IMG/VR virus record: IMGVR_UViG_3300042731_011014
Span: 113,891 to 177,890 of that record
DNA: 64,000 nucleotides
DNA from: a virus
Strand: one strand, 5' to 3'
Notes under the pieces: generated by a model
Databases searched by the model: none
Told to the model about the DNA's origin: nothing
The model's input: only the letters and a program-made list of their open reading frames with translations
Program-made: the position numbers and the translations under genes
Shown: in pieces, positions 25,982-47,603 of the stretch
How positions within the stretch are numbered: position 1 is the stretch's first letter
Layout of the letters: each line of letters opens with the position of its first letter

Positions 25982-26556
25982 CTGCCCCTTTTTAGATCTC
26001 TTTCTATTCTTCTCTGCGTGCTTCGTCTTAGTGGTGACTTCTCTTTTTTGGGGACTTTCTTGCTCTTCTCTTTTTCCTTGCCTTTCTCCGCTTTGGCTTT
26101 TCTCGCTTCTTTACCTTGCTTTGTTCCGGTAGCCCCTCCAGATTTTTTATCATCATCTTTTTTACCCCTATTTAGACGTTTCAAGTATCTATTATACTCA
26201 CGCTCAAACCTAAGTGTCATAAAATTGTAATGCGAAGTTTTTCTAGCGCCGCCACGCTCAAACGCATGCTTAAAATCACGTCTTACACCGCGCTGTGTTC
26301 GCTTCATATCCGAGACTTTCCCTTTATGGGACCCTCGTTTATAGAACGCTGATAAGCCATCCTTATGATGGTGCCAGGGTTTTGTCATAACATGTCTGCA
26401 CATATTCATCGCAGCAAAAGCCCTGGTACCTTTTTTAGGTTTGAACTTTCTGTTTTTATAAACAGCCAAGGTGCAGTGTTTAATGAGCGTAGGTGCCTGT
26501 TTTAAATCCGATTCACCAGCTTCAGCTAAAAGATGTTTTATACTAATAAGTTTCAT
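25978..26556 (-). CDS. Highly basic hypothetical protein (possible DNA-binding head protein)
   Basis: Lys/Arg-rich; N-terminal HLLAEA cleavage-like site. Confidence 0.55.
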   Translation of the reverse strand: MKLISIKHLLAEAGESDLKQAPTLIKHCTLAVYKNRKFKPKKGTRAFAAMNMCRHVMTKPWHHHKDGLSAFYKRGSHKGKVSDMKRTQRGVRRDFKHAFERGGARKTSHYNFMTLRFEREYNRYLKRLNRGKKDDDKKSGGATGTKQGKEARKAKAEKGKEKEKSKKVPKKEKSPLRRSTQRRIERDLKRGR

Positions 26557-27442
26557 TTATTACTTTAGCCTTTTCAAATTTATACCTTCCAAAACAATCA
26601 AAACCTTGAGTATTAAAAATCTTTTTAATCTCCGGTCTTACATTTTCAGATCTATCAACTATCCAAATACACTCTGTACGTTCTTTATCAATGCTAACTT
26701 CTTTTATTTTAGAAGCGAATATTTTAACTTCAAACCTGATAGTAAACCATTCATCTGGAACATAGTTGTTATCATATCCTGATAAAACGAATGAGCCCTC
26801 TGCATTATTAAGAGCAAGGATAAGGTTTTTATAATAGCTATCGTCAATTTTAAATTCATAGTTCTGATCAGTGCCAATATATGGCGGGTCACAATAAAAT
26901 AAAGTTTGCGGACTGTCCCATTTTTTAATTATATTAATAGCATCATCACATTCAATATAAACACTCTGCAATCTATCAAGTGGACTTTTTAATCTGTTAT
27001 TCCCATTAGACCAAGTAACACAATGATTTTGAGTAAATAAACCAAAACCCCATCCGCCATTTTCTATTTTTGCAAATGATTGATTTATATTAACATAATA
27101 CGCCCATGCTTTTTCCAGATCGCTAGCGCCATTAGGATTTTTACATATTTCTACAGCCTTTTTATGTTCAGCCTTAGAGTATGGAGTAAGTTTTAAATGC
27201 CTTATTAATTCTTCACCATCATCACTACGTAGCACCCTAAAAAAATTAACTAAAAGCTCATTTTTATCGTTAAGAACTTCACGATAGTGAGTACTGTTAG
27301 TTATCATAGGTAGTGGTTTTGTAAAAAATACTGCTGCACCACCACAGAAAGGCTCTACATAAACAGTGTGATTGGGGAAATACTTCACAATTTTCGAAGC
27401 TATACGCTGCTTGCCACCATAATACGAAATAGGAGTTTTCAT
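26543..27442 (-). CDS. dam: DNA adenine methyltransferase (Dam/D12 class)
   Basis: YYGGKQRIA, YVEPFCGGAAVFF, EVLND, FYCDPPY, FVLSGY motifs. Confidence 0.93.
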   Translation of the reverse strand: MKTPISYYGGKQRIASKIVKYFPNHTVYVEPFCGGAAVFFTKPLPMITNSTHYREVLNDKNELLVNFFRVLRSDDGEELIRHLKLTPYSKAEHKKAVEICKNPNGASDLEKAWAYYVNINQSFAKIENGGWGFGLFTQNHCVTWSNGNNRLKSPLDRLQSVYIECDDAINIIKKWDSPQTLFYCDPPYIGTDQNYEFKIDDSYYKNLILALNNAEGSFVLSGYDNNYVPDEWFTIRFEVKIFASKIKEVSIDKERTECIWIVDRSENVRPEIKKIFNTQGFDCFGRYKFEKAKVINETY

Positions 27443-28986: not shown

Positions 28987-30468
28987 CTATGGCAGGTTAG
29001 AACAAGTGATTAAACCATAGTACTTATTGTTAACTAATTTTTTCGCGTAGCGTGTCCGCATCCCCTTCCTGAAGTTTTGGTCATCAGGGTCGAGGAATGT
29101 TGGAGTAACCTGTAAGGGCACATAAGGCGCATACACCATTCCTGAATCCAAGAATGTTGGTCCCTTTAGGCCTATCATGATTTGATCATCTGGGAATAGT
29201 GGATCAACATAAACAGTCCATCGGTTTTGTAACACGCCTAGGCCATATACACCGAATCCTGACGGCGACGTTGGAGGTTGAGGTGCGGGTTGACCAAGGG
29301 TCCCTTGACCAGCCGGCATACTTCCACCATCAAAAACTGATTTAAAGCTACCATGAGTCTCCATGGCGCTAAACAAGGATGCAGCCCGAGTGCTTGTAAC
29401 AATCCAATTACCCGGACCACGCAAGGTTTGCTTACCGACTTCCTGGGAAACCTTGGCAATCTTGGTTAAAAGAGTCATGTAATGCTCTACTGGGCTATAG
29501 CTTAAACCAGACACATCCGCATCAAACGATTCCTTGTTTGTACCAGCGGCAGCACCTAAATACATGTCCATAATTAGCTCACGGTCGATTTCCAGAGCCA
29601 GTTCTGATGCTACACCACCAACTAACTCCCCTTCAGCGTCCATACCGTGTATGGCTTTTAAATCATCGGCAGCTTCAGCGCTCCACAAGAATTTCAGCTT
29701 CCGGCTACTTACCTTGATTGGGTCAAGGCCGATATCCAAATAGACTTGAGGCACGGTAACATTTGCCCCTTCCATATCGAAAAAGTAGTTAGCGTAGATA
29801 GGAGCTTTGTCATCTACATTACCATCCCAGGTAATATCATAGGCACCATCCGAGTAAGTAATCGTTGATGCTGCACCAGTATCACCAGCTAAATCCCCAC
29901 TTCCGTCGGGATCATAGATTCTTTTGGCTGCGGTTCCAACCAGGGTTGTAAACTCAAGACCAACTTGGGCTTGCGGACATGAAATAAAAGGTTTTACAGG
30001 TGTCCATGAAAGGTTACCAGTGTAATTCGCTGTCGCACCATTACCGGTCGCGATAACTTCGTGATAGATATACTCTGAAGAATAATACCTGTCGAAGTTC
30101 TCGATCATATTGTCGCCAGCTGTAATTGTTCCCTTGGAGGTACCGTATTTGTACTCCCAAGTGAAAATGCCTCCTATAGGGCCAGTCATTGGTTGTATAG
30201 AAACGAGATTGTTAGCAATTAAGTTCGGCCATACCCTACGAATCATAGGGAAGACGAACTTCACGAAATCAGCGAAGTTACCTGTGGTTGTATTTTCACT
30301 GAGGTTTCGGACATGCTGCATTTGATTTTCGAATAAAATAGCCGTGGCTGCCCTACGATAGGGTTCATGGATACCTTCTAAAAGGGGTGCCCATTTTTTA
30401 GTTACAGCTGCGACAAAACTCTTATTTTGAATTGAACGGGTTTCGTTCATTATTTCTCTGGCTTCCAT
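28987..30468 (-). CDS. Major capsid protein (T4 gp23-like)
   Basis: KWAPLL, AILFENQ, FPMIRRVWPNLIANNLVSIQPMTGP, SRKLK..WS.E...DL.A.HG.D.E, EIDRE, YAPYVPL, F..GMRTRY. Confidence 0.96.
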   Translation of the reverse strand: MEAREIMNETRSIQNKSFVAAVTKKWAPLLEGIHEPYRRAATAILFENQMQHVRNLSENTTTGNFADFVKFVFPMIRRVWPNLIANNLVSIQPMTGPIGGIFTWEYKYGTSKGTITAGDNMIENFDRYYSSEYIYHEVIATGNGATANYTGNLSWTPVKPFISCPQAQVGLEFTTLVGTAAKRIYDPDGSGDLAGDTGAASTITYSDGAYDITWDGNVDDKAPIYANYFFDMEGANVTVPQVYLDIGLDPIKVSSRKLKFLWSAEAADDLKAIHGMDAEGELVGGVASELALEIDRELIMDMYLGAAAGTNKESFDADVSGLSYSPVEHYMTLLTKIAKVSQEVGKQTLRGPGNWIVTSTRAASLFSAMETHGSFKSVFDGGSMPAGQGTLGQPAPQPPTSPSGFGVYGLGVLQNRWTVYVDPLFPDDQIMIGLKGPTFLDSGMVYAPYVPLQVTPTFLDPDDQNFRKGMRTRYAKKLVNNKYYGLITCSNLP

Positions 30469-30519: not shown

Positions 30520-32124
30520 TTATTCTTTTTTAATTCCTGACAGATCAACTAAAGTATCTATTCCTATTCCAAACAAATCGCCTTCATCCAGCTTTTTTGC
30601 TCGGGTATCCGAATCTATGGAAGTATCATTTCTCCCCTTACGAAGAGATCTAGTGATACTATTATACTCTTCACTTACAGGATTATTATCATCGTATTCA
30701 TCAATGATATCATTAATCTCTTGCTGATTATTTGCAGCACCGTTCGAAATTGCACCCTCAATAATTTTGCGAACCCTTAATTTGTGCGGGTGATCCGAAA
30801 TCTTGCGCTCCACATAAAGTTGCAATGCAAGCTGTCGAGCTGCTATATGAGCCTCAGTTACACTCTGTGATAATTTGTCATTATCATCTTTGAGCTTCTG
30901 AACTTCCTCAGTAACAGCACGTTCGGCCTCCGATTGCTTCTTTACCTTGTTGATAACCAATCTGACTGATTCCTCAAGCTCACTGATTGATTTAAACCTC
31001 ATTATGTCGCCAATGTTATTTTTGACAACTTCAAGATTCTCATCAATCTCATTAACTATATTAGTCAAATGATGTTCAAATCCAATCCGCTTTGCAACGT
31101 TCATGTAATCGTCACGTTCTTTCTCAAGAGCCTCAACTTTTTCCTTGAGTTCACTGCTAACTTTCTTAAGTTGTTCCTTAAGATCTGAGATCTCCTTTTC
31201 TCTTTGACTAACGAGATCGTTAACATCCTCAGGTAAAAGATAAGGAATGAGTTTTTTTGCAATATCTTCCAGTGTTACTTTGGCTCCAGCTACACCAGGA
31301 TCACTTAGTAGCTCGCCGCGCACTTCTTCCTTTGCTTCACTCTTTATCGTCCCTACTTTATCTTCAAGCTTCTTTGCAAAATCCTGCTTAAGATTGTCTT
31401 CTATTTCCTTTTTAAGCTCTTCCTTTGTCTTATTGCTCTGCTTTTCGATTTCTTCCTTTGTTTCCTTCACTGCCATTGAGACAATGTTGTTATATAATTC
31501 AGGATATTTCTTTCTAAATTCCTCAATTGTCATGTCTGAATCTCCATCACCCTCTTGGGTCTGATTATGTTTTTGTTCGTTTACACCAGTAACATTGTCA
31601 TCGCTGCTAGTTTCCTCTTTAAAATCAGGATACGAATTCACCGCAGCTGGATCTGCAACGAAATCAAATGTTATTAGGTTATAATCCTCTTGTACAATGT
31701 CATTGCCAGACCCATCAGGTCTAGTGGTGCCCCAACCTCTGCTAGAAACTCCGACCTTGCCGCCAGACCCAACAATAGCCTTAAGTTCCTTGCCCTTAGA
31801 GGTATCCATAACCAGTGCTTCACCATAAATTTCACCATTTGGTTTCATTTGAAGCTTAGTGATTCTATGACTTGATCGAGATAGTTTTGTTTTACCATCC
31901 CCAGGATGATCGAGTTCACCATAAACAGTATTTTCTTTAATAGCGCTTTGCTTTTTATGTACCTCACGCTCCATTAATTTGCGCTTGTACACTCTCTTAT
32001 TTGCTGTAGGCGTATCACTTAAGCCAAATCTACCTTTAGCTATTAATCTGGTATTACCAGCGGATTCCTCAAGAACATTAATGCTGACATTGGACCATTC
32101 ATCAATTAGTAAGACCTTATCCAT
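30520..32124 (-). CDS. Prohead protease (gp21-like) fused to coiled-coil scaffold
   Basis: NKRVY, YGELDHP, GVSSRGWG, FDFVADPA in the first ~170 aa, then a long E/K-rich coiled coil. Confidence 0.92.
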   Translation of the reverse strand: MDKVLLIDEWSNVSINVLEESAGNTRLIAKGRFGLSDTPTANKRVYKRKLMEREVHKKQSAIKENTVYGELDHPGDGKTKLSRSSHRITKLQMKPNGEIYGEALVMDTSKGKELKAIVGSGGKVGVSSRGWGTTRPDGSGNDIVQEDYNLITFDFVADPAAVNSYPDFKEETSSDDNVTGVNEQKHNQTQEGDGDSDMTIEEFRKKYPELYNNIVSMAVKETKEEIEKQSNKTKEELKKEIEDNLKQDFAKKLEDKVGTIKSEAKEEVRGELLSDPGVAGAKVTLEDIAKKLIPYLLPEDVNDLVSQREKEISDLKEQLKKVSSELKEKVEALEKERDDYMNVAKRIGFEHHLTNIVNEIDENLEVVKNNIGDIMRFKSISELEESVRLVINKVKKQSEAERAVTEEVQKLKDDNDKLSQSVTEAHIAARQLALQLYVERKISDHPHKLRVRKIIEGAISNGAANNQQEINDIIDEYDDNNPVSEEYNSITRSLRKGRNDTSIDSDTRAKKLDEGDLFGIGIDTLVDLSGIKKE

Positions 32125-32966: not shown

Positions 32967-34253
32967 TTATGAATTTTTTTCTAAAGCTTTACTAACAAGT
33001 TTCGTTGCAAGCTCATAGTCAACTAGGTTTTTTGCAAATTCATCAAAGACCAATCCAAGGCAAGGAATACACCCATCACTCTCGATTACCACTTCTTTTA
33101 TACCATTACTGAGATCTGCCAAGTCATCTTTTAAGTCTTTAATAAAAATGTTAAATTCCTTTATTGCCTTATCAGACTTAAGATCTCGAAACACATGATC
33201 TCTTTTCTGGTATTCATCATGATATTTTGATATGTTCTCTTTTAGATTATTTACTCTAGATACTAAATTATCTATATCTTGCTCAATCGTTTGGGATGCT
33301 TCGGCAAGTTTTTCGTCGCTAATATTTTTAGAATACAAATGGCGATATTTTGATTTCAATGATTCTTCTTTTATTTTTCCAATATCGCCATAAAGAACTT
33401 TTGCTACAGTCTCTTTATTGTCTCTTAAAAATTCTTTCCACTTCTTATTTGTCGGAAATACTTTTTTAAGTGACGATACGACCCTGTCAAAACTCTCAAT
33501 TAGGATGGATTCCTTGTCTGGAACAGACCTTATAAGCTTACGCATATTGTCTTTAAAAAGACTATCATCCCCTTCTATCAGACCCTCAACAGCACTATTT
33601 ATTACTTCGTTTGAATCTTCCTCATAAACAGCAATATTGGCGTCCGCGACCTCGTTAAATTCAACACTATTATCAGAGCAACTAAATCGTGCTCTGTAGA
33701 ACTTACCATCACTATTTGCGACTACAACATAATCTTTAAATGTTGCTATTGGTTTCGCAAATCCTTCGGTAAACTCAATCTCTATATCACCCGATCCCTC
33801 AAGAGAATCTGCGGACATTGACACAATCTTATCCTTACTGGGACCATCAAGCATTTTGACGTCATAGGCAACAGGGGTCCCAAATATTCCAAGGTTCACC
33901 TTGATAATTTTACCCTTATGTTTGCCTTTTTTTACATCAATATCAACCTCTGTAACTATCGAACTATTGTCACATGTGATACTTTCAATCACTTGTTTGT
34001 TATTATCTAAAAGATCGGCTTCGTAAATTCTTCCATCTTCATCACTGCTCACAATGCCAGTGATACGACCGCGCCTATCTAGAATAAAAACTTCCTTCCC
34101 AACAATTTTATCTTCTTTTAGTCCAAATTTTGTTCTGTTGTTTTCTACAGCGTATCTTACTTTTTGAAGCAAGTTTTCGTAAGAACCTTCCATCAGTTTA
34201 TCTATTATTCTGGTAGGTACGTATTTACTCTTTGATTCTGTATCGTTAGCCAT
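32967..34253 (-). CDS. Hypothetical head morphogenesis protein
   Basis: 428 aa ORF directly downstream of the portal. Confidence 0.65.
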   Translation of the reverse strand: MANDTESKSKYVPTRIIDKLMEGSYENLLQKVRYAVENNRTKFGLKEDKIVGKEVFILDRRGRITGIVSSDEDGRIYEADLLDNNKQVIESITCDNSSIVTEVDIDVKKGKHKGKIIKVNLGIFGTPVAYDVKMLDGPSKDKIVSMSADSLEGSGDIEIEFTEGFAKPIATFKDYVVVANSDGKFYRARFSCSDNSVEFNEVADANIAVYEEDSNEVINSAVEGLIEGDDSLFKDNMRKLIRSVPDKESILIESFDRVVSSLKKVFPTNKKWKEFLRDNKETVAKVLYGDIGKIKEESLKSKYRHLYSKNISDEKLAEASQTIEQDIDNLVSRVNNLKENISKYHDEYQKRDHVFRDLKSDKAIKEFNIFIKDLKDDLADLSNGIKEVVIESDGCIPCLGLVFDEFAKNLVDYELATKLVSKALEKNS

Positions 34254-34364
34254 GCCTTTTCTCCGATTGTAAAAATCTCAGCTTGTCAAGCTGAAACTAT
34301 ACTATCTAACTCATATTAACATGCAAAAATCTTTTATCAATATTTACTTTAACTTACTTCTATC

Positions 34365-37300
34365 TTATGCTACTTTTTTGTAGCTGATAGCTTCCTTAAT
34401 CTCGCGCATGAGGATCCTTAGTTCTCTAACACCTTTATTGAGTTCTTTGTTTGAATTAATAATATTTAAAACCTGGTCTTTTGACACATTCTTATCTCTG
34501 CCTGAAGTAAGTCTTCTTTCAAATCTGCGTCTTAATTGCTTTTTAACAACTTGAAGGTCCTCTTGAGGAACGTTTTCTGCTGGCTTTTCGGCCGGCAATT
34601 GTCCACTCATTGATATTTTAGATCTGATTTTATCTTGCCTACCTTCAATTGATGCCATTCTTATAGCATCCTCAACACGATGATCTAAGATATCCTCAAT
34701 TTCTGAGTTAGTCATGCCGAAAATGTTTTCCATAATCCATCGTTGTGATACCCATTGTTGCATAGAATCGGCTAACTGTGCTCTTTGATTTCTCACTTCC
34801 ATTTGGGCCATTTCAAAAACAGCGCTCGGGACTGTCATCATGACATTAAAATTAACAGATGATGGGTCAAGGCCTTTAGCCGCAAGATGGACACGTCCAA
34901 TTTGATGGAATCCAGTTTTAAGGACCCTTTGGACCCTCAGTATTGTACGCGCAAATCTAACATCTTCCTGGGAATTATGAACAAAAACTCCGCATTCCGT
35001 AGCAAAATTATGATAACCATCAACAGTCATATCATAAGTATCAATAACAGGGCCTTCTCTAACTTCAACAACCTTATGATTTCTCCCCTTTTTTATCGCG
35101 GTAGCAGTAGACCTACTCATGTACTTCAGCATGTACTCATGTGCAAAATCTGCGTACTTGATGCCATTTTCTGAAAAAATCCTATTAAGTAAACACTCAC
35201 TATATCCGGACCACTTAATAAGCTCTTTTTTACTTTTACATCTATAACTTTTTGCAACTTCTATTAGATGTTCAATATTTGCATCAGCACCTGGACTATA
35301 AACCTGCTCGTAATCTTTTAACTTTTGTGCCCTACCAATACCAGAAGCATTTCTCCTATATAGAGGCATTAGTGAATCCTCAGGTTTTAAATCTATTGCT
35401 TCTCTATAAGATCCGTCTCTCATCATAATAGGATGATCTGGCGTACAAGTTAAAATCTCCCCGTTATCAAGAACAACTTCCACTGTTCTGGTTTTTTTCT
35501 TAGTTAAACGAGCATTTTTTGCTAGACCAGGTACAATATGACCATCATCATTACAAGAGTAAACCCAAAATGGCTTGCTTCTTTTTGAAAGATTCTCAAT
35601 TGTTTCAGATGTTCCATCCAATAAAGGAATCATTGTATTGCCAGCTAAACACAAGGTGGCTCGTGATATTGTTTCCTCATACCCAAGGTAAGCCCTAGGA
35701 ACTTTTATTGCTGCATACAATTTCATTCTAAAATAATCAACGTCATCAATTCCCTGGTACATACTACCCTGAAGCATGTCAATCCGCGTACTATCTTTTC
35801 CACTACGTGTTGGAATCCAGAAATCCTCATCTTGAGAATTCTTTATGAAAATACCAGCCGTTAACGCAAAATTATGATATTTTTCAACAGTTAAAGTATA
35901 AGTATCTTCACACTGTTCAATGTATTTAACTGAAACGACTTTATGATTATTCGATGATGCCCATTTTTTAAAAGATTTGAAATTGTCAAAACCTTTTTCC
36001 CTATACATTTTTAACATTAAATGTCTATGAACTTTCTTTGACAAATTTTCCTGTTTAAATAAATCAATCAATCTGGAATTATTGACATAATTTACAACAT
36101 CTTCTGCGCTAACATTTAAATTGTTGGCCACATATGATTGAACGCCAACGAAAAAATCATCAGAAAACTTAATTTTTCTTTTTTCAGAAAAAGCTACTCT
36201 GTTTTCCTCGTTTTCCCAAAATTTCTTTTTATTTTCTGACCGCTTAACATTGTCTTGCTCATGTTTACATGAATTATTATAAGCTATTATGTACTTTTCT
36301 ATCTTATTCCAAGCTGAAATATTTGCAGATGACACCTTTTTTAGTTTTTTATCCAAAACAGGATCGGATAACCTTATCTGAGACATAATATGACCAATAT
36401 TATGACCATTATCACGATGTATTATACTATGTTCGCTTTTTTTCATAAAAGACAAATTATCGGGAGAATTATCAGTTTTTATAAAATTTTCATGATGAGT
36501 TACACCATTTTGCTTCAATTCATCTCTAACCATACGATGGGTGTAAATATATTTTTTTGTTTTTGGATCATAAACCATCTCGTACCCATCTATTGAATAA
36601 CCCTTATCCTTTGACGAAATAAGAGTTTTGTATGGCATAAGAGAATCACCAGATTTTAAATATCTTGCTTCACAATATTTCCCATCTCTTTTTATAAATT
36701 TATGATCTGGGGTAGTCCTAATTGTTTCACCATTATCAAGAGTTACCTCAACAAGTTGTGCCATTTTTCGGGTTTTTCCTGCCCAAACTATTTTTCCTGG
36801 AACAATTTTCCCACTATCAGATCTATCAACAGAATATACCCAGTTCTCTTTTCCTCTGTTGAATTCGCCAACAAGGTTAACTATTGGGATATCTCTGCCA
36901 TCAAGTAACGCTATTTTTGTATCACCGGTCAAACAAAGAGGATTGTACTTCATATTCAAAGTACCATCTGAGTTGACAAACTTGCGTTTTTTAAACTCAT
37001 TTCGCATTTGTCTGACATGAGCGGTCGCCTCATCGGCATCCATGTCACCCGTATCAACGTAGAAAGCAAACCTTGTAGGAGCCCTGGTAAGTCGGTAAAC
37101 AAGCATCGCATCCTCAAGGAGAACTAATCGTTTCCAGATCCATCTTGCGGGCTCGAGCACGCTATTGTGAACAACAATACCATCTGAAACAAAGCAATGT
37201 CCGTCATCAGCAACTTCTATGTCATAAACCTTTTCAATAATACTTGGTTCTTTAGAAACTATTTTTTCTGAAAAAAAATCATTATCAGAAATATTTTCTC

Positions 37301-40085
37301 TAAAGAATGACAACAAATAACTGTCTCCACTATTTATTTCTTTACCATTTATTATAGATTTTTTATCTCTCGGCTTACGCGGTCTAATGTTCCCAGATAT
37401 CCATCCTAATCCATCTATAACTGTTTTAATATCAGCTAAAAGATTTTTATTGCAAAGCTCAGTGTGATTATATTCTCCTTTTTTGGTTATCCACCCGTCG
37501 GCCTCCATAAATCCATCTATCATCGCTGTTCTGATACTTTTTGGAGCATTATAAACCCAATATGGCACTCTTTTGTTTCTTGCCCTATTAATCCACCCTA
37601 TTTTAATCATTAGATCAGATAATCTTTTTGAACTGACATTAATCGTCCTGCTTATTCCATCATCTCCTCTGCTGACTTCTCTGACATTTAAACCAATACT
37701 TCTTAAGTAATTTTCATAAAATATATTTCTTTCTTCATATACTCCAAGGTGTATAATTATACACCCGTTTTCAATTGCACCATTACCAAGCATATACCCC
37801 CAAAACTTGGCAAATCTATGATCTATAAAATCTGGCAAAATCAATGAATCATATTTTTTCTGCTCAATAGAGTCATAAGTAAATGGTACTCTAATGGAAC
37901 TAAACAATTTTTTTGCACTATCAAATGACAAAGAACTTTTACCATCTAATAATTCATCAAGCTTTCCTTTAGTTATCCCAATATCTTCGGCAAATCTTTT
38001 CAATCCATCAAATTTACTGGAATATTTACTTATTTTTGCACAAGTTTTAAGCGAGTTAATTCCACGTTTACTTAAAACAAATTCAGATTTAGAATTAAAC
38101 TCATCTAATAAAAGGCCAAGTGGAATATTATTCTTTGTTTCTGGGCAATTACTAACGCACATTATTTTATCATTAGGAGACAAATCTTTAACCTGAACCC
38201 ACGTATTTCTCCCTGGCTTTTTATCAACTAAAACAGGATGTTCGCCAGTTAATATTATTTCTCTATGTGCTGTTTTTAACTTAAAGGTTTGCTTTTCCCC
38301 ACTACAAACATGATTCAGTACTTTAGTTTGTCTAAGTAACCCTGCGTGTCTAGTAAAAACACTATCGCCTGGTTTAATATCCTTAATGAACTTCACACCA
38401 TCTGGGGTCCAAACCCTTGATTCACCTGATAAACAATACCCGTACTTACTCTTTCTCATTTTTGATCTAAGACGGAAATGAGCAATCTTCCATGGCTCAT
38501 ATAAAATGGTATTACCATCCTGGGATGCCATTGCACCGTTTGGCATTTCAATGCCAAAAACAGATTTATCAATTTTAAAGTCACCTGAATAAGATTGTGC
38601 AAACCCCAATATTGCACCGGTCCCAGTTTCAAACCTCCTAATCGTAGCTGATGGAAGGAAATTTAATCCCTGAACACCATCATCGTTAACCAGTATCTCT
38701 TCATAATCACTGCCATATTTGCAAACTGTTCTAGATATCTCCCAAATATTGTCTTCAGCTCTTATTTTGTTGTCATACATATCGGTAAGATCTGTTTGAA
38801 CATTATCATCCTCGCATTCAACCCACATAGATCGGTTTTTTTCACCATCAGTTTGTGTTGAATCGTCTGCATATATATCGAGAGCCGAATTGTGAACAAC
38901 TACTCCATTGCAAACAAAATTATGATATTTTGGGACTTCAATATCATACACATCGTAAGATTCGCTAATTCTTATAACATTAACCACTCGATGATTTCCA
39001 ACATCAGAGATGAGATCGAATTCTTCTAGCCTGCGTTTCAGTACGCCAAAAGATACGCCTAGCTTTTTTGCTGCCTCAGTTATACTACTTGATGACATAT
39101 AAGCAGCTTCAACCTCTTCCCTGCTAAGCTTTATTTTATGCCCTTCAGCTATCTTGCGCTTGTGCTCTTCTGATAGTTTTTTGTCTGTTAACGGCACTCT
39201 CTGCTTTTTATCTGTTTTCCTTTGATTTGGATGTTTTGTTCCAAGCATTTTTCTAGAGCGCTCTTTGCGCAATTCATCTGTCCATTCTGGAAAATACTTA
39301 GTTGTATCGTGACTTTCGAAATTATGCTTTCTGGCATGAGAATTATGGGTTTCTAGACTAAGGTTGTCCAAACTATTATTTAAAGGGTTGTTGTCTTTGT
39401 GGTGGACAACCTCCCCTTTTTTTCTTTCCAAAAGCTCATTAGCGACCAATTTATGAATCCAAGTCCACCTTTTCCCGTCACTTTCTCTTATTGATTCTGG
39501 TGATGGTTGGTGGACTTGCCAATATTCGTTTTTACTCTTAGGAGTTAATTTTCTAGTTCTAAGTGCCCCTGGCATTAATCGTGTACCAGGTTTTAGTTCG
39601 CCAGCTTTTTTCCAAACATTAATTTTGGTTAAAAACAAATGATCATCAGTACATGTAATGCTTTCGCCATTATCAAATAAAACTTTGACCATTTGTTTTG
39701 GATGACCTGCCTTGCCTGTTATACGTGCATTTTTTGCTTTTGCAGGTAATAGAGATCTTCTTAACCTGTTATAAGAAAGAACATGAAACTCTCCTCCTCT
39801 CTCTGCAAGTTTTTTAACTTCAATCCAACCATCTTCTATTGTAAAAATCTTACAACATCCCGTAATACAAGAAAGATCTGGGTAGTCATCCATATTTTCA
39901 TAATCGACATAGCGACTCATAAGATCATGATCTAATTGCAAATAATCGGCTACTGAGTCAAATCCGAACTGCATAAACAGGTTGAAATCTTTTTCGCCAG
40001 CCTGAGGAAGATCGGACCGAGAAACCTCATTTTCTCTTTTGAAAATATTTCTTACATATCCAGCAATTTTATCACTTATTGACAT
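34365..40085 (-). CDS. Portal protein (T4 gp20-like) containing four inteins; spliced product about 563 aa
   Basis: Exteins join to YPDLS-SALDIYADD, YGY-SVLEPARWIWKRL.LLEDAMLVYR..RAP.R..FYVD.G, YNPL-SQDEDFWIP.R, TL-SQEDVRFAR. Confidence 0.95.
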   Translation of the reverse strand: MSISDKIAGYVRNIFKRENEVSRSDLPQAGEKDFNLFMQFGFDSVADYLQLDHDLMSRYVDYENMDDYPDLSCITGCCKIFTIEDGWIEVKKLAERGGEFHVLSYNRLRRSLLPAKAKNARITGKAGHPKQMVKVLFDNGESITCTDDHLFLTKINVWKKAGELKPGTRLMPGALRTRKLTPKSKNEYWQVHQPSPESIRESDGKRWTWIHKLVANELLERKKGEVVHHKDNNPLNNSLDNLSLETHNSHARKHNFESHDTTKYFPEWTDELRKERSRKMLGTKHPNQRKTDKKQRVPLTDKKLSEEHKRKIAEGHKIKLSREEVEAAYMSSSSITEAAKKLGVSFGVLKRRLEEFDLISDVGNHRVVNVIRISESYDVYDIEVPKYHNFVCNGVVVHNSALDIYADDSTQTDGEKNRSMWVECEDDNVQTDLTDMYDNKIRAEDNIWEISRTVCKYGSDYEEILVNDDGVQGLNFLPSATIRRFETGTGAILGFAQSYSGDFKIDKSVFGIEMPNGAMASQDGNTILYEPWKIAHFRLRSKMRKSKYGYCLSGESRVWTPDGVKFIKDIKPGDSVFTRHAGLLRQTKVLNHVCSGEKQTFKLKTAHREIILTGEHPVLVDKKPGRNTWVQVKDLSPNDKIMCVSNCPETKNNIPLGLLLDEFNSKSEFVLSKRGINSLKTCAKISKYSSKFDGLKRFAEDIGITKGKLDELLDGKSSLSFDSAKKLFSSIRVPFTYDSIEQKKYDSLILPDFIDHRFAKFWGYMLGNGAIENGCIIIHLGVYEERNIFYENYLRSIGLNVREVSRGDDGISRTINVSSKRLSDLMIKIGWINRARNKRVPYWVYNAPKSIRTAMIDGFMEADGWITKKGEYNHTELCNKNLLADIKTVIDGLGWISGNIRPRKPRDKKSIINGKEINSGDSYLLSFFRENISDNDFFSEKIVSKEPSIIEKVYDIEVADDGHCFVSDGIVVHNSVLEPARWIWKRLVLLEDAMLVYRLTRAPTRFAFYVDTGDMDADEATAHVRQMRNEFKKRKFVNSDGTLNMKYNPLCLTGDTKIALLDGRDIPIVNLVGEFNRGKENWVYSVDRSDSGKIVPGKIVWAGKTRKMAQLVEVTLDNGETIRTTPDHKFIKRDGKYCEARYLKSGDSLMPYKTLISSKDKGYSIDGYEMVYDPKTKKYIYTHRMVRDELKQNGVTHHENFIKTDNSPDNLSFMKKSEHSIIHRDNGHNIGHIMSQIRLSDPVLDKKLKKVSSANISAWNKIEKYIIAYNNSCKHEQDNVKRSENKKKFWENEENRVAFSEKRKIKFSDDFFVGVQSYVANNLNVSAEDVVNYVNNSRLIDLFKQENLSKKVHRHLMLKMYREKGFDNFKSFKKWASSNNHKVVSVKYIEQCEDTYTLTVEKYHNFALTAGIFIKNSQDEDFWIPTRSGKDSTRIDMLQGSMYQGIDDVDYFRMKLYAAIKVPRAYLGYEETISRATLCLAGNTMIPLLDGTSETIENLSKRSKPFWVYSCNDDGHIVPGLAKNARLTKKKTRTVEVVLDNGEILTCTPDHPIMMRDGSYREAIDLKPEDSLMPLYRRNASGIGRAQKLKDYEQVYSPGADANIEHLIEVAKSYRCKSKKELIKWSGYSECLLNRIFSENGIKYADFAHEYMLKYMSRSTATAIKKGRNHKVVEVREGPVIDTYDMTVDGYHNFATECGVFVHNSQEDVRFARTILRVQRVLKTGFHQIGRVHLAAKGLDPSSVNFNVMMTVPSAVFEMAQMEVRNQRAQLADSMQQWVSQRWIMENIFGMTNSEIEDILDHRVEDAIRMASIEGRQDKIRSKISMSGQLPAEKPAENVPQEDLQVVKKQLRRRFERRLTSGRDKNVSKDQVLNIINSNKELNKGVRELRILMREIKEAISYKKVA
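34974..35651 (-). mobile_element. Portal intein 4 (226 aa, endonuclease largely deleted)
   Basis: CLAGNTMI, CTPDHPIM, no HNH or LAGLIDADG core, ends TYDMTVDGYHNFATECGVFVHN|S. Confidence 0.93.
35838..36935 (-). mobile_element. Portal intein 3 (366 aa, HNH-type; ends Lys-Asn)
   Basis: CLTGDTKI, TTPDHKF, YTHRMV...THHENFIKTDNSPDNL, ends TYTLTVEKYHNFALTAGIFIKN|S. Confidence 0.93.
37164..38435 (-). mobile_element. Portal intein 2 (424 aa, LAGLIDADG homing endonuclease)
   Basis: CLSGESRV, LTGEHPVL, FWGYMLGNG and MIDGFMEADG motifs, ends VYDIEV...HCFVSDGIVVHN|S. Confidence 0.95.
38889..39869 (-). mobile_element. Portal intein 1 (327 aa, HNH-type homing endonuclease)
   Basis: Starts C (CITG), block B CTDDHLF, WIHKLV...VVHHKDNNPLNNSLDNL, ends VYDIEVPKYHNFVCNGVVVHN|S. 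Confidence 0.93.
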
Positions 40086-40088
40086 ATC

Positions 40089-42122
40089 TTACCCCATTAT
40101 GATCGAAGGCATTATTTTCTTAGGTTTGCCCGGTTTCCCTTTTGGTTTCAAATTCTTATTTCTAACAACCCAATCGTATTCTCTCATACTTCCACTGATT
40201 GGCTCAATGCTTTTCATTATTGGCAAAGGCATTCTCATTGGCACTGTAGTTAACCCATAGCATACACCGCACACCGCATCAGATATATCCTTACTGCCTT
40301 TATCAAGGTGATCGATTTTTCCGGTCGTTTCATCATCAACCAGTCCTTTTAGTTCCTGAATCAATGGAGCATACCTGTAATAAACAATCCTATTTTCATA
40401 CAACGCCTCTTTTAGTATTTTATACGGATCTTTTGACCTATCAACACTAACTATTTCAGCCTTGTATCCTTTCTTGACTAATTTCTGCTTTGATTCTATC
40501 GATTGAAACGAGTCCATTGATACATATCGGATTGGGTAACCCATCTCTGTTAAAATGTAAACTAGCTGCCTACCGGTTCCCAAATCAATCTCATCATCTT
40601 GGGGCGGAATAATTCTTATAGCAAAATCAATAACAATAACAGGAGCTTTCTCTGATGTCATTTTACCCGTTGATTTATCGCGTCTACTTACATTAACCAT
40701 GCCAGATACATGGCCCATAGCAAAACCAGTGGCATCTCCAGTAAGTGATGGATCGATATGGACAAATCTTGGTGACTTCGGCGATATGATAGGTCTAATT
40801 TTTCCATTACTATCTGGTGCCACCATAAGCCTTCTATTAAAAGCAATAGGTAAATTTGGGTTCCATTCGATAACATCAGTCGGATGAGCCATATTATCGT
40901 TGATTGCTTCAAATATCTTTTCCCTACGAACAATAAATGGCCTAACTGCCATGGTGGCAATTCCGGCCATATCGCGCAAAGCATCATCAATGTCTTTTTC
41001 GAAATCAAAACGGAAGTCCTCAGGTACCTCTATAATAGTGCACCCTTCGTCTTCCATTTCCTTAGTCATTTCAAAATCTTCGTCTTGATCTAGTACTCTT
41101 GATCTTTGCGCATCAACGCCAACAAATACCTGAAATCTATTTTTTGAAAACCGTTCGGGCGGCTGAACGTCCCAAATTGCATAATCGCGAACAAATAAAG
41201 TTGGATCATCCCTGGACTCAAGAATCCTTTTTTGGGTAAAATCATGCTCAGTTTGTTTTGACGAAGGAAGTAAAAGAATACCGGGTAACCTACCGGTCCG
41301 ACCGAACCTTGATCTCATTCTTCTGATAACGGAGTTGTAAACCAAACTAGCGTCGTCAATAATTCCATACTTTGCATGGGCAGCCTTTTCTTGCTTAGTT
41401 CGGCGTCCACCTTTAAAGTTTGACTCATCGATCACACCACCAAAAATATTTAATCCAAGGGACCCTGTCCTTGCACTGGACAGTGGTGCAAGCCAAACGT
41501 TTTTAGGGAACCTAATTTCACTGCTAGTTATTTTAGGATCAAAATGCTCTTTAAAATATGGCGAACAAACAAGCATTGCAACAACACCTGTGAATACAAC
41601 TTTTTTAGCCATCTTCTCAGTAACATGATAATTAACAATAGCTATCTGCTGATTCTCGGATTGGCCGTAGCTTTTTTGAGGATTCCTAAGGCATGATATC
41701 TCATAAAGCATTCGGCATATTGCAAGGTTGGAGAAAAAAGTTTTCCCCCACCCTATTGCACCGGTAAGTATTGCTTCGTGATATGGGCCACTAAACATCT
41801 CGATAAAATCTTTCTCAAGCTGAGGCCATAATTGGTTGCCTGTATCACCCATGTAGTAGGGATCGTGAAGCCAGGTCTCAACATCAACTACCTCCCTTTC
41901 ATATTCAGCCTCCCGGTATATATCGACTATTTTGAATTCTTCTTTCCTCCCGTACTCGTCGATATATAACTTACTATCATCCGTTGCCAGCTCCTTTAAC
42001 ACTTCCCTTAAGACTTCTATCTCATTTTTAGATAATCCAGCTATTGCCTTCGTTATCTCTTCGACACGTTCCCTGTCCGTCCTCTCGCTTTTGAACCTTC
42101 CATTATTTACAACAACAGCCAT
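40089..42122 (-). CDS. terL: Terminase large subunit
   Basis: Walker A AILTGAIGWGKT, Walker B GGVIDE, nuclease VHIDPSLTGDATG and KIDH...GSKDISDAV. No intein. Confidence 0.95.
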   Translation of the reverse strand: MAVVVNNGRFKSERTDRERVEEITKAIAGLSKNEIEVLREVLKELATDDSKLYIDEYGRKEEFKIVDIYREAEYEREVVDVETWLHDPYYMGDTGNQLWPQLEKDFIEMFSGPYHEAILTGAIGWGKTFFSNLAICRMLYEISCLRNPQKSYGQSENQQIAIVNYHVTEKMAKKVVFTGVVAMLVCSPYFKEHFDPKITSSEIRFPKNVWLAPLSSARTGSLGLNIFGGVIDESNFKGGRRTKQEKAAHAKYGIIDDASLVYNSVIRRMRSRFGRTGRLPGILLLPSSKQTEHDFTQKRILESRDDPTLFVRDYAIWDVQPPERFSKNRFQVFVGVDAQRSRVLDQDEDFEMTKEMEDEGCTIIEVPEDFRFDFEKDIDDALRDMAGIATMAVRPFIVRREKIFEAINDNMAHPTDVIEWNPNLPIAFNRRLMVAPDSNGKIRPIISPKSPRFVHIDPSLTGDATGFAMGHVSGMVNVSRRDKSTGKMTSEKAPVIVIDFAIRIIPPQDDEIDLGTGRQLVYILTEMGYPIRYVSMDSFQSIESKQKLVKKGYKAEIVSVDRSKDPYKILKEALYENRIVYYRYAPLIQELKGLVDDETTGKIDHLDKGSKDISDAVCGVCYGLTTVPMRMPLPIMKSIEPISGSMREYDWVVRNKNLKPKGKPGKPKKIMPSIIMG

Positions 42123-42135
42123 TTATTCACCGTTT

Positions 42136-42852
42136 CTAATTATCATTTATCCATATACGCTCTATACTTTTTTTGAACTTATTACCACTACCGTGATTGA
42201 TGTATATATTTTTGAAGTCAAGCCAATCTACCCCAGGCCCCTCGCAAACAATAACTTGTCCACTTCTCGTTTTACACCATTCAGCTAGTCTTTTATAATC
42301 CATATTGGTTAAATTGCAAATATAATACTTATTATTAATATAGGGAGGATATATAAACCAAGTAACTTTCATTGGAGGTTCAACTACAGAATAATCATTA
42401 CAATAAACCTCCCAGTGGTTTATTTTATTAACTTGATTTGCAATCTTTTTTCTAGTCAATTCTGACCAAAAGCCGCATACATTAGCATTTGATTCAGCAA
42501 TTGCGGATTTTACAAGTGATTTTTTAGGCTTTATGCAGTTTTTGTTTAACCAAAAACCAATAAAATCTTTTTCAGCATCAGATAATGTTTTTATGTTATC
42601 TATCTTCTCTCCTCTATTTAATAGAGGCAAACTAAGTATATCGTTTTTGTTTGCCTCTATTAAATATTTCCATACTCTATATACTCTAAAATATTTTTCA
42701 ATAAGTACTATTTTCTTATCGTAATATAAGGTAGAGTAACCCGCAGATCCGGCAAATGGTTCAACTATCATATCATACTTAGGTTCAGGATATTTTCCTG
42801 CCTTACACCATTTGGAACCAAAATAAGAAAAAAAAGGAGCTAACCTACTCAT
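42136..42852 (-). CDS. Short Dam-like DNA methyltransferase, copy B (motif IV reads YPPY)
   Basis: Probable start MSRLAPFFSYFGSK at 42852 (track start 43020 overlaps the upstream gene); IVEPFAGSAGYS; WFIYPPY (codon TAT where GAT is expected). Confidence 0.8.
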   Translation of the reverse strand: MSRLAPFFSYFGSKWCKAGKYPEPKYDMIVEPFAGSAGYSTLYYDKKIVLIEKYFRVYRVWKYLIEANKNDILSLPLLNRGEKIDNIKTLSDAEKDFIGFWLNKNCIKPKKSLVKSAIAESNANVCGFWSELTRKKIANQVNKINHWEVYCNDYSVVEPPMKVTWFIYPPYINNKYYICNLTNMDYKRLAEWCKTRSGQVIVCEGPGVDWLDFKNIYINHGSGNKFKKSIERIWINDN

Positions 42853-43555
42853 TAATCCAAACCAATTCCTTTGTTCTACATCTACTTCCTTCCGTATTAC
42901 ATAAATAAGTAAAAGGAAGCCAGTCAGCAGATTCGTTCTCGCAAACAATAACTTGACCCTCTCTTGTTTTGCACCACTCAGCAAGTTTTTTATAATCTGA
43001 ATCCAATAAAGGACAGACATAACAGTAACCCATTTTTTTATATGGTGGATCTATCAACCAGGTGGCTTTAAATGGCGGATCAGCTATTGAATAGTCGCCT
43101 AAATAAACTTTCCAATGATCTGTCTTATAGATATTTTTAGCTAACCTTTTTCTTGTTAGCTCACTCCATGATCCACACTGTCCCTTATTATTTGTCTCTA
43201 TTGCACGAGGTGATAGATAATTTTTTGGTTTTTCAGTTCCCCTATTAATCCAAAATCCTATAAGATCTCTTTCTTCATCTGATAGGTACTCAATATCTCT
43301 TATATTTTGATCTCTTTCCACTAAAGGAAGGTTTAAAATATCCTTTTCTGTTGCTGAAATAAGATACTTCCACAATCTAGCTATGCGGAAATATTTATCA
43401 ATTAGAATAATATTTTTTTCCCAATGTAACGTTGAGTAACCTGCCGCTCCGGCCAACGGTTCAATTATTACATCATGTTTTGGAGGTGGGTATTTGCTAG
43501 ATATCGTATTCTTGCTTCCAAAATAGGAAAAAAAGGGGGGCGTCTTGTCGCTCAT
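42845..43555 (-). CDS. Short Dam-like DNA methyltransferase, copy A
   Basis: FFSYFGSK, IIEPLAGAAGYS, WLIDPPY, GQVIVCEN. Confidence 0.85.
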   Translation of the reverse strand: MSDKTPPFFSYFGSKNTISSKYPPPKHDVIIEPLAGAAGYSTLHWEKNIILIDKYFRIARLWKYLISATEKDILNLPLVERDQNIRDIEYLSDEERDLIGFWINRGTEKPKNYLSPRAIETNNKGQCGSWSELTRKRLAKNIYKTDHWKVYLGDYSIADPPFKATWLIDPPYKKMGYCYVCPLLDSDYKKLAEWCKTREGQVIVCENESADWLPFTYLCNTEGSRCRTKELVWINE

Positions 43556-44319
43556 TTGCTGCCATTGCCTTTACCATTTCCGCTTCCATTATCTCCTTTT
43601 GATATTAACTGATCTTGCAGATCAGGTCTTAATGATGCAATATTGTTAGCTATCTCGAGAACCTTTTTCCTTGACTCTGGCATTTTTAAAATCCTTCGTG
43701 CAGCCCTACTACTCATACTTCCATCTAACATAGCCATAGTCTTTGTATCAACATCAATTATTTTACTACTACCATCCCGGATACCTAATGCAACCTGGTA
43801 TTCTGCAATAGTTTTTAAAATAGTCAAACATTGATCTATTTCACGGACGGTTGTGGGGAACAGCATTCCAAGTTTTTCTTCATGTTCGCTAACTATTCCG
43901 ACCCTTTTCTTTTGTAGCCGATATATTTCTGACATTTCATTTAAAACACTTATTCCCTCTTCAAATTCTCGCATTTTTTCCAGATACCTCCTAGGGAACA
44001 TATGCTCCGCTACTTCTGCTGGTGGCAGGTTACTGCGATATTTTTTTAAGGCCTTCTCAATTTGATTTGCAGTCAGATCGCGGAATATGCACAAGTTATT
44101 ATGAATATAATCTGCAATAAAAACAATACTATATCCGTCTTTAACCATGCGCGAAATCTCGTCAAAGTCCCTTGACTCACGCATTCTTTTGAGGACCCTA
44201 TCTCTTTTCTTTTTCTCAGGATCGGTAAGTGTTTTTTGAAACCCAGATAGATCGCTTGGTACGCTACGCAGCTCTACCCTTTTCAGATCTTTGTTATCTA
44301 ATTTTTCTGCCGCATCCAT
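43552..44319 (-). CDS. Putative terminase small subunit
   Basis: Helical N-terminal HTH-like part plus coiled coil, upstream of terL. Positional inference. Confidence 0.5.
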   Translation of the reverse strand: MDAAEKLDNKDLKRVELRSVPSDLSGFQKTLTDPEKKKRDRVLKRMRESRDFDEISRMVKDGYSIVFIADYIHNNLCIFRDLTANQIEKALKKYRSNLPPAEVAEHMFPRRYLEKMREFEEGISVLNEMSEIYRLQKKRVGIVSEHEEKLGMLFPTTVREIDQCLTILKTIAEYQVALGIRDGSSKIIDVDTKTMAMLDGSMSSRAARRILKMPESRKKVLEIANNIASLRPDLQDQLISKGDNGSGNGKGNGSK

Positions 44320-44360
44320 TTGTCACCTGTGACGTGGATATAGTATTCCTCACTATATCC

Positions 44361-44389
44361 AAAATACACTGTAAACATAAAAATGTCAA
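44361..44389 (-). promoter_or_regulatory. Sigma70-type promoter for the packaging/head operon
   Basis: TTGACA-17 bp-TATTTT, followed immediately by hairpin GGATATAGT-N7-ACTATATCC (44336-44360). Confidence 0.55.
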
Positions 44390-44437
44390 TTAGATCGGTT
44401 GGAAGCGGATTTTGTAACAAATTAAGACAAGGGCAGG

Positions 44438-44800
44438 TTACTTAACTTTACCGTCGATAACGTCTAATGTTTTTTCCATTGTTTTGACATCAAACGAGCT
44501 TGCATCATTGCCATCTATTATGTCATACATTCTCTGGGCTCTAAGATAACGGACTAACCCGTCAGTTTCGGCGAGATCATCTTGGGATAATTGATCAACT
44601 TTAATACCAGATTTTCTGGCATTTTTAATCATCCTAGCAAATGCAGGGAGGCTCATCAATTGATCTATTTCCAAGTCGGCTATCCCAAATAATTTTTGGG
44701 CTCTGTGACTTACATATGCTGTTGAGCTATCATCGGTAAACAGTTTTTTATATTGTTTATCAACGAATTTTTTTAATTCTTTCTGTATTTCTTTTTTCAT
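44438..44800 (-). CDS. Hypothetical protein
   Basis: Co-oriented ORF. Confidence 0.55.
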   Translation of the reverse strand: MKKEIQKELKKFVDKQYKKLFTDDSSTAYVSHRAQKLFGIADLEIDQLMSLPAFARMIKNARKSGIKVDQLSQDDLAETDGLVRYLRAQRMYDIIDGNDASSFDVKTMEKTLDVIDGKVK

Positions 44801-46772: not shown

Positions 46773-47603
46773 TCAGACGTTGTTGTGATGGTCCCCGTTT
46801 CGCAATCTATACTGATCACTCGAACTCCTCAAAAATACTTTTCTTTTCCTCTCAAGCTTACTCATAGCTTTTTTTAATATTTGCTCCGCCCGCTGCTTTG
46901 AAAACCCAAATTTCTGACCTATTTGGACAAAGCTCCATTCATCCCTAACTTTTAAAATTAAAACCTCCCTCTCCTTATCCGTCAAGCATGATAACAGTTT
47001 ATTCGCGATATCTAAATCATATCTAACTCTATAATTATCCTCCTGATTGCACTCATCAAAGGCAAGGTTTTTAACAAAAAATGTACCATCACCAATCCTT
47101 AAAGGTTTCTCAATATTTACTGTATTACTAAGTGCCGTGCCCGATATTATGACAGCAACGGCTATTTTAAGATATCTGCCGTTTGGTGTCCCCTCGTCAA
47201 TTCTATCTAAAATATCGTTAACATTGTCGCCGTTGCTACTTGCTATCAATTTTCTTGCATCGTTTAATCTCCATGCAACCTGTTCAGGTATTCGAACACC
47301 GCTTAATTTACTTGATATAAACCTACAGATTTCATTACTTATACACCGCCTTGCATAGGTGGATACTCTATAACCCTTTTGTATTTTAAAATAGTCCACA
47401 GCCCTCATAAGACCTATTGTGCCCTCCTGGATTAAGTCATCAAGAATCTGTGGCATATTTAACAATCTCGCATATCTACTAGCTATCGCAATAACAAAAG
47501 GCAAATGAGATACTACTAACATCTCTTTATCACCTGATAAAGCTGCCTCTTTCTCTTCTTCTTTTGTTAAAATTCTAATATTCTTATAGATACTGTTTTC
47601 CAT
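46773..47603 (-). CDS. Sigma70-family RNA polymerase sigma factor
   Basis: Region 2 SHLPFVIAIASRY..DDLIQEGTIGLMRAVDYF...GYRVSTYA; region 4 LTDKEREVL...SFVQIGQKFGFSKQRAEQI. Confidence 0.92.
   Translation of the reverse strand: MENSIYKNIRILTKEEEKEAALSGDKEMLVVSHLPFVIAIASRYARLLNMPQILDDLIQEGTIGLMRAVDYFKIQKGYRVSTYARRCISNEICRFISSKLSGVRIPEQVAWRLNDARKLIASSNGDNVNDILDRIDEGTPNGRYLKIAVAVIISGTALSNTVNIEKPLRIGDGTFFVKNLAFDECNQEDNYRVRYDLDIANKLLSCLTDKEREVLILKVRDEWSFVQIGQKFGFSKQRAEQILKKAMSKLERKRKVFLRSSSDQYRLRNGDHHNNV

Follow-up and report, generated by a model that had tools for sequence, protein, structure and literature searches.

Four class-1 inteins in the gp20-type portal gene of an uncultured T4-like myovirus

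The stretch of DNA analysed here (the window) is 64,000 nucleotides long, covers positions 113,891 to 177,890 of the IMG/VR virus record IMGVR_UViG_3300042731_011014, and forms the final 64 kb of that 177,890-bp record, which is rated complete by CheckV and has a guanine-plus-cytosine (GC) content of 37.8%. Window positions 34365..40085 hold one uninterrupted open reading frame (ORF) on the minus strand, which encodes a precursor of 1906 amino acids (aa) and 219 kDa (P0001). It is the single gp20-type portal gene of an uncultured T4-like myovirus, the only Portal_T4 gene found in the genome, and it carries four class-1 inteins. The gene and its parts, in the direction of translation, are as follows.

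34365..40085, minus strand: portal precursor gene, 1906 aa, 219 kDa, stop codon at 34365-34367
39870..40085, minus strand: extein 1, aa 1-72, ending in DLS
38889..39869, minus strand: intein 1, aa 73-399, 327 aa, site a; HNH motif at ~39315-39467, followed by a C-terminal helix-turn-helix (HTH)-like module
38436..38888, minus strand: extein 2, aa 400-550
37164..38435, minus strand: intein 2, aa 551-974, 424 aa, site b; LAGLIDADG motif 1 at ~37761-37814
36936..37163, minus strand: extein 3, aa 975-1050
35838..36935, minus strand: intein 3, aa 1051-1416, 366 aa, site c; HNH motif at ~36396-36551; ends in KN, followed by S
35652..35837, minus strand: extein 4, aa 1417-1478
34974..35651, minus strand: intein 4, aa 1479-1704, 226 aa, site d; deletion junction near 35288/35289
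34368..34973, minus strand: extein 5, aa 1705-1906

Profile searches bore out both halves of the preliminary description of this gene as an intein-laden portal, with the Portal_T4 profile (PF07230) matching the exteins of the unspliced ORF in four stretches (E 5e-51) and each intein exceeding the Intein_splicing gathering score. When the inteins were removed by script, the five joined exteins gave a protein of 563 aa and 65.2 kDa, residues 1-554 of which aligned with the intein-free portal P0173 at 46% identity; eleven further intein-free portals aligned with it in much the same way. All four extein junctions were gap-free against the intein-free portals, and each lies within a strongly conserved motif, so the joined exteins do form the clean 563-aa gp20-like portal that had been described. 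An intein-free relative of the portal also matched the PDB gp20 entries 3ja7 and 6uzc (E 2e-23). Intein DNA was found to be richer in AT, with a GC content at third codon positions (GC3) of 0.24 versus 0.34 in the exteins. The most GC-rich piece of the gene is extein 3 (GC3 0.47), whose 76 codons separate intein 2 from intein 3.

The intein boundaries, with a slash at each splice junction, are DLS/C73...HN399/S, YGY/C551...HN974/S, NPL/C1051...KN1416/S and ATL/C1479...HN1704/S. Scanned singly, inteins 1-4 scored 66.2, 41.1, 68.4 and 57.5 bits with Intein_splicing (PF14890), for which the cut-off is 35.8. Residue 1 is Cys in all four (CITG, CLSG, CLTG and CLAG), block B has a TxxH motif in each (TDDH, TGEH, TPDH and TPDH, at intein residues 63-75), and the C-termini are HN/S, HN/S, KN/S and HN/S, with a terminal Asn and a Ser at position +1 throughout. 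Both the motif positions and the Pfam scores uphold the four units of 327, 424, 366 and 226 aa first described at DLS/S, YGY/S, NPL/S and ATL/S. Together these sum to 1343 aa, or 70.5% of the precursor. This anatomy and the family membership of the gene were read directly from the DNA.

A penultimate His is usual in class-1 inteins, though not obligatory. The Lys-Asn ending of intein 3, which had been singled out as non-canonical, is present as described but is not odd, since among 105 site-c inteins the endings KN/S and KN/T were observed in 42 and five, respectively, and a penultimate His in only 10. Judged by these allelic sequences, Lys-Asn is the commonest ending at site c and is neither a defect nor an oddity of intein 3. 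We considered Lys-Asn as a mark of a dead intein and rejected it, given that it is the commonest state at this site.

The endonuclease domains of the four inteins differ in their state of preservation. In intein 1 the HNH_3 profile scored 28.4 bits, over the cut-off of 24.8, and in intein 3 the HNH match reached 15.7 bits, under that cut-off; the HH...N...H residues of both inteins align with those of their allelic inteins, and the whole of intein 3 can be aligned with intein 1 (26% identity, E 2.5e-19). The earlier assignment of HNH motifs to both therefore stands by score for intein 1 and by conserved motif residues for intein 3. Both nucleases are apparently competent, as far as can be judged from these residues.

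Intein 2 carries the LAGLIDADG pair that had been reported, but the catalytic Asp of motif 1, present as LGDG in 11 of 12 allelic inteins, is replaced by Asn (protein residue 768), giving LGNG. Motif 2 (EADG, protein residue D863) is intact. The LAGLIDADG_3 score of 13.9 bits is under the 22.5 cut-off, and comparison with the allelic inteins makes the fold family clear. Single-chain I-CreI and I-MsoI lose double-strand cleavage when Asp is replaced by Asn in one half-site, with nicking at most remaining (PMC2655683), and for this reason we consider the nuclease of intein 2 probably crippled and unable to make double-strand breaks.

Intein 4 was compared with eight allelic inteins of ~380-410 aa, and the alignment showed one clean gap of ~166 aa corresponding to the HNH core, in agreement with the earlier claim that this intein has lost its nuclease. 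Its N-terminal 124 residues are 60-70% identical to ~380-410-aa inteins at the same site of other portals, and it retains the HTH-like module and the C-terminal splicing blocks. This pattern identifies intein 4 as an HNH mini-intein, formed by a single internal deletion of the nuclease core. The three endonuclease states of the preliminary description were thus right in that the states are mixed, but they are better read as four stages, with two HNH domains apparently intact, one LAGLIDADG domain without its Asp and one HNH domain deleted.

Decay of this kind could also mean that one or more of the inteins no longer splices, in which case the gene would be a relic and the genome a defective or dead-end variant. 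We consider this very improbable. The absence of a penultimate His in intein 3 and the decay of two of the four nucleases would fit it, but Cys1, TxxH, the terminal Asn and Ser+1 are kept in all four inteins, the 5.7-kb frame contains no stop, and the gene is the only portal gene of the genome. Lys-Asn is, moreover, the commonest ending in the site-c lineage, and the loss of a nuclease has no effect on splicing.

Because the record was assembled from a metagenome and intein content varies within this family, a four-intein gene might in principle have been created by an assembly artefact that joined alleles of co-occurring phages. The identical 1906-aa protein was, however, found on three contigs, including a 178,203-bp JGI contig with the same neighbour genes, and the extein pieces form one coherent portal. 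Even allowing that all three contigs may derive from one sample, we regard an artefact as exceedingly unlikely, the least probable of the explanations considered here.

To place the insertion sites on the protein, exteins were aligned to RB27 gp20, a 524-aa T4-type portal, with domain limits taken from the cryo-electron microscopy structure of T4 gp20 (PMC4493910). Site a falls after gp20 residue 96 in the wing domain, site b after residue 253 at the wing/stem border, site c after residue 328 in the clip domain and site d after residue 396 at the end of the tunnel loop. The clip of gp20 binds the terminase and the neck, and the T4 portal is a dodecameric ring (PMC4493910). By analogy with T4 gp20, the portal described here would form a dodecamer at the capsid vertex. 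With inserts at these four positions, an unspliced chain would presumably be unable to fold into the ring or build the dodecamer. The figure of 48 splicing events per virion given in the preliminary description is arithmetically correct for a dodecamer (12 subunits x four inteins).

To determine how common such genes are, portal homologues were surveyed in public databases. A search restricted to long proteins (1048-3336 aa) returned 682 matches, and the best 120 of these 682, which were inspected, all had both Portal_T4 and Intein_splicing and reached up to 2818 aa. A search for shorter proteins returned chiefly one-intein portals, plus some that were intein-free. Inserts of at least 120 aa were then counted in 240 homologues by chaining hmmsearch domains over the exteins, which was used instead of hmmalign, as the latter aligned only one local domain of multi-intein proteins. 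No insert was found in 16 of the proteins, while 104 had one, 76 had two, 34 had three and 10 had four. These inserts occupy a dozen or more distinct sites; sites a-d are all recurrent, and site c is the most used.

A sample without intein-similarity bias was obtained by searching the intein-free portal P0173 against 1.84 billion cluster representatives. For the best 150 of 4277 matches, two counting methods gave the following distribution.

0 inteins: 45-48 representatives
1 intein: 57-59 representatives
2 inteins: 30-31 representatives
3 inteins: 12-13 representatives
4 inteins: 2-3 representatives, including the portal described here

About two thirds of these best 150 representatives contain inteins. 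More heavily loaded portals were also identified. The Pfam Intein_splicing profile matched P0047 in six stretches, and P0062, P0004 and P0019 in four, while custom profiles of the N- and C-terminal splicing regions indicated six inteins in P0047, six in P0062 and five in P0040. P0047 (2818 aa) and P0062 (2591 aa) are metagenomic T4-type portals, each with six N-terminal and six C-terminal splicing-region matches. Four portal inteins are therefore the upper tail of the distribution and are neither unique nor unprecedented in sequence data. The lack of precedent that the preliminary description had left open can be set aside, and the novelty of the gene is correspondingly lower, as sites a-d are recurrently occupied and multi-intein T4-type portals are common (682 long matches; up to six inteins). 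Public metagenomes contain hundreds of T4-type portal genes with one to six inteins, and this gene is a strong example of a hotspot that is common but little described. A megablast of the gene against 50,697 phage records returned no match, and tblastn returned distant portals only, with matches that span both exteins and inteins confined to two uncultured huge phages and possibly Sinorhizobium phage Phosso.

Some of the densest portals show unusual intein arrangements. In P0062, two inteins seem to abut at ~1156/1157 (...VVHN/CADLD...), so that the +1 Cys of one would be Cys1 of the next, and at 479-483 no more than about four extein residues lie between two other inteins (HN/SDEG/C); the order of splicing would therefore matter in this protein. 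Several inteins of P0047, P0040 and P0258, distributed over more than one site, match the model from its position 3 onwards and lack an obvious Cys, Ser or Thr at the residue expected to be first (for example, NLPV/KWDTPIP and PLPV/SFDTPIP). These may be class-2 or class-3 inteins, or their boundaries may be misplaced.

We next compared the distribution of inteins with the phylogeny of the portals. A FastTree phylogeny of exteins was built for 148 of the 150 representatives, and changes in site occupancy on this tree were counted against shuffled labels. Site a, occupied in 31 representatives, changed 30 times (shuffled mean 28.3); site b, occupied in 11, changed nine times (10.7); site c, occupied in 43, changed 34 times (37.2); and site d, occupied in 13, changed 11 times (12.5). 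Occupancy of sites a-d is therefore scattered almost at random on the extein tree, and the nearest neighbour of the portal on it, P0264, is intein-free. A tree of 237 intein N-terminal domains gave the opposite pattern, in which the site label changes 23 times versus a shuffled mean of 155.5. In this tree all four inteins fall within groups of same-site inteins, and the closest matches to each come from the corresponding site of other portals (45-53% identity for inteins 1-3).

The N-terminal domains of inteins 3 and 4 share 47% identity. Recent intragenic copying between their sites was considered and rejected, as each groups with its own site-specific lineage. No near-identical portal alleles differing in intein occupancy were found in the databases searched, where the best extein identity was ~58% (a fragment). 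Scattered occupancy among the portals, combined with grouping of the inteins according to site, fits site-specific selfish homing elements with a quick turnover relative to the divergence of the portals. This evidence is at the level of the family, whereas the preliminary description had supposed frequent homing by co-infection within the phage's own population. Intein 4 lies only 62 codons from intein 3, and it could spread by co-conversion when intein 3 homes. In haloarchaeal MCM experiments, neighbouring inteins were found to be able to hinder each other (PMC10643990).

The same trees bear on the suggestion, made in the preliminary description, that splicing may gate capsid assembly. Under such a scheme the inteins would have been co-opted as a checkpoint, with conditional splicing (responding to redox state, metals or temperature) delaying the mature portal and so timing or gating prohead initiation; an essential 12-mer would in effect serve as a checkpoint that takes 48 splicing events to pass. 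Head assembly does start from the portal, and each of the four inserts interrupts a structurally essential region. Intein 1 begins with CITGCC, and the extra cysteines near Cys1 could in principle act as a redox trap; other inteins have been documented to splice conditionally (PMC7360933). We found, however, that occupancy is near random at every site and that the closest relative is intein-free, that the inteins follow site-specific mobile lineages, and that their nucleases are kept or decaying as the homing cycle predicts. Insertion into conserved motifs is a general habit of inteins, and no regulation-specific feature was found in these four. The suggestion is unsupported, with the pattern of occupancy and lineages being that of selfish homing elements, and we consider a checkpoint role unlikely.

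By far the most probable reading is that a single essential portal gene holds four independent site-specific class-1 inteins, which are selfish homing elements. Each would have invaded the gene independently, from a separate lineage of portal inteins that is itself widespread. The 219-kDa precursor would then undergo four autocatalytic splicing reactions to yield a 65-kDa portal subunit, each reaction proceeding through an N-S shift at Cys1, transesterification to Ser+1, Asn cyclisation and an O-N shift. The inteins would stand at different stages of the homing cycle: inteins 1 and 3 with apparently competent HNH nucleases, intein 2 with a LAGLIDADG domain whose Asp-to-Asn change probably precludes double-strand breaks, and intein 4, with its HNH deleted, left with co-conversion alongside a neighbour and vertical descent as its sole ways to spread. 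What is observed across the family, namely the allelic relationships of the inteins and their turnover, is in keeping with this; splicing of all four inteins, the activity of the nucleases and homing itself are inferred.

Several points weigh against this reading. The first 240 homologues were picked partly by intein similarity, and clustering at 50% identity may over-count intein-bearing forms in the second sample. The phylogenies were built with FastTree on 50%-identity cluster representatives, and poor resolution would inflate the apparent scatter of occupancy. Both the HNH of intein 3 and the LAGLIDADG of intein 2 are below Pfam thresholds, their assignment coming from motif alignments. 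Finally, LGNG is also found in P0013, an allele 45% identical to intein 2, so that the Asn may be long-standing and tolerated rather than the mark of a recent inactivation.

The portal is not the only intein-bearing gene of this genome. We identified seven other inteins outside the window, giving about 11 in 178 kb, at loci with genome coordinates 60140-65935 (L011), 33214-36987 (L009), 42018-44471 (L010) and 39645-41807 (L014). A class II ribonucleotide reductase has three, with the endings HN/C, FN/T and HN/C, a superfamily 2 (SF2) helicase has two, one of them PI-SceI-like, and DnaB has one. The primase has one probable intein, for which Intein_splicing scored 29.8 bits (under the cut-off) and LAGLIDADG_3 was over its cut-off. 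With ~11 inteins, this phage may be among the most intein-dense on record.

Portal inteins and four-intein proteins are both known already, and the gene is not new in kind. Portal inteins are recorded in mycobacteriophages and actinobacteriophages (PMC5050341; ICE-BLAST survey, bioRxiv 10.1101/2025.01.02.630785). As described there, these resemble the present case in that a phage portal is interrupted by inteins with homing-endonuclease domains, in a patchy distribution and in several separate lineages; they differ in that the portals belong to IPR009279 (cluster C1 phages), whereas the portal here is of the gp20 type (PF07230) and has four inteins. The text of both sources, as searched, makes no mention of two or more inteins in one portal. 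In the bacterial mobilome, 14 inteins were counted in SPP1 Gp6-like and Mu F-like prophage portals and 22 in Terminase_6 (PMC4760082). There, too, the portal is a recurrent intein host, but those portals are of another family (COG2369), come from prophages of cultured bacteria, and are not described as multi-intein (PMC4760082).

Four inteins per protein have been reported for the ribonucleotide reductase of Trichodesmium erythraeum and, at four sites, for archaeal MCM (PMC10710043, PMC2874743, PMC10643990). Four was the published maximum before five inteins were reported in Anaeramoeba Prp8 in 2023 (PMC10710043, PMC2874743). Like the portal, these three are single essential proteins with several non-allelic inteins, but they are cellular replication, nucleotide or spliceosome proteins, while the portal belongs to the structure of a virus and functions as a 12-mer. 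For crAss-like phages, a load of up to three inteins per genome plus many introns was called unprecedented in density (PMC7886860), and the ~11 inteins counted here are far more. The Zeta group of crAss-like phages and the Jug phages share with the present genome a heavy colonisation of core genes by self-splicing elements (PMC7886860, PMC12880540); theirs are dominated by group I introns, while here there are ~11 inteins, and the comparison is on inteins alone.

No description of multi-intein T4-type portals was found in the literature searched, and the T4-type portals of uncultured phages represent an intein hotspot that seems unreported there. No fewer than 12 insertion sites were seen in these portals, and as many as six inteins in one chain. 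They may have the highest intein density of any known protein family, and we consider this more likely than a checkpoint function. The six inteins per chain of P0047 and P0062 exceed the published record of five. In the gene described here, one essential structural protein displays what appear to be four stages of the homing cycle side by side. As a data set, the portal family offers a means to study how neighbouring inteins help or hinder each other in homing, how Lys-Asn splicing chemistry is tolerated, and how an oligomeric assembly protein copes with multiple splicing steps. For protein engineering, the family also supplies new orthogonal inteins.

The portal gene lies in a head module with the order large terminase, portal, two unknown ORFs, S77 protease and major head protein. 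The neighbours to which functions were assigned are the following.

40089..42122, minus strand: predicted large terminase (P0241), 677 aa; Walker A GAIGWGKT, Walker B VIDE; fold match
30520-32124, minus strand: prohead protease, phrog_207, Peptidase_S77
28987-30468, minus strand: major head protein, phrog_138

The ORF at 40089-42122 is directly upstream of the portal, with 3 bases between its stop codon and the portal start. Searches of the whole genome with Terminase_6N and Terminase_6C gave no match, PHROGs and Pfam searches of 30 large ORFs named no terminase, and a profile search of this ORF against PDB sequences identified none. An AlphaFold model built with 26 relatives reached a predicted local distance difference test (pLDDT) score of 79.8, and its top Foldseek matches in the PDB were the large terminases of HK97, D6E, Sf6 and T4 (gp17), with E 8e-14 to 2e-11 and probability 1.00. 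As the fold search alone identified it, the ORF is assigned by its modelled fold (ATPase plus RNase-H-like nuclease) as the large terminase. No intein signal was found in it, in line with the preliminary description, which had noted that the terminase has none.

Relatives of this terminase with lengths of 800-1118 aa made up 26 of 119 among the matches listed, and most of these had intein or LAGLIDADG Pfam domains; an intein is present in about a fifth of the terminase relatives among the matches listed. The family is labelled only as 'hypothetical' in the sources, with the precomputed Pfam domain PF27249 (MJ0330_N).

Further upstream, two overlapping ORFs in different frames (42136-43020 and 42845-43555, both on the minus strand) match the phrog_56 DNA methyltransferase and cover successive parts of the profile, and these may represent a frameshifted or recoded methyltransferase gene. 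A third methyltransferase, at 26543-27442, is complete. The ORF at 46773-47603 on the minus strand resembles an RNA polymerase sigma factor (phrog_351, E 4e-32).

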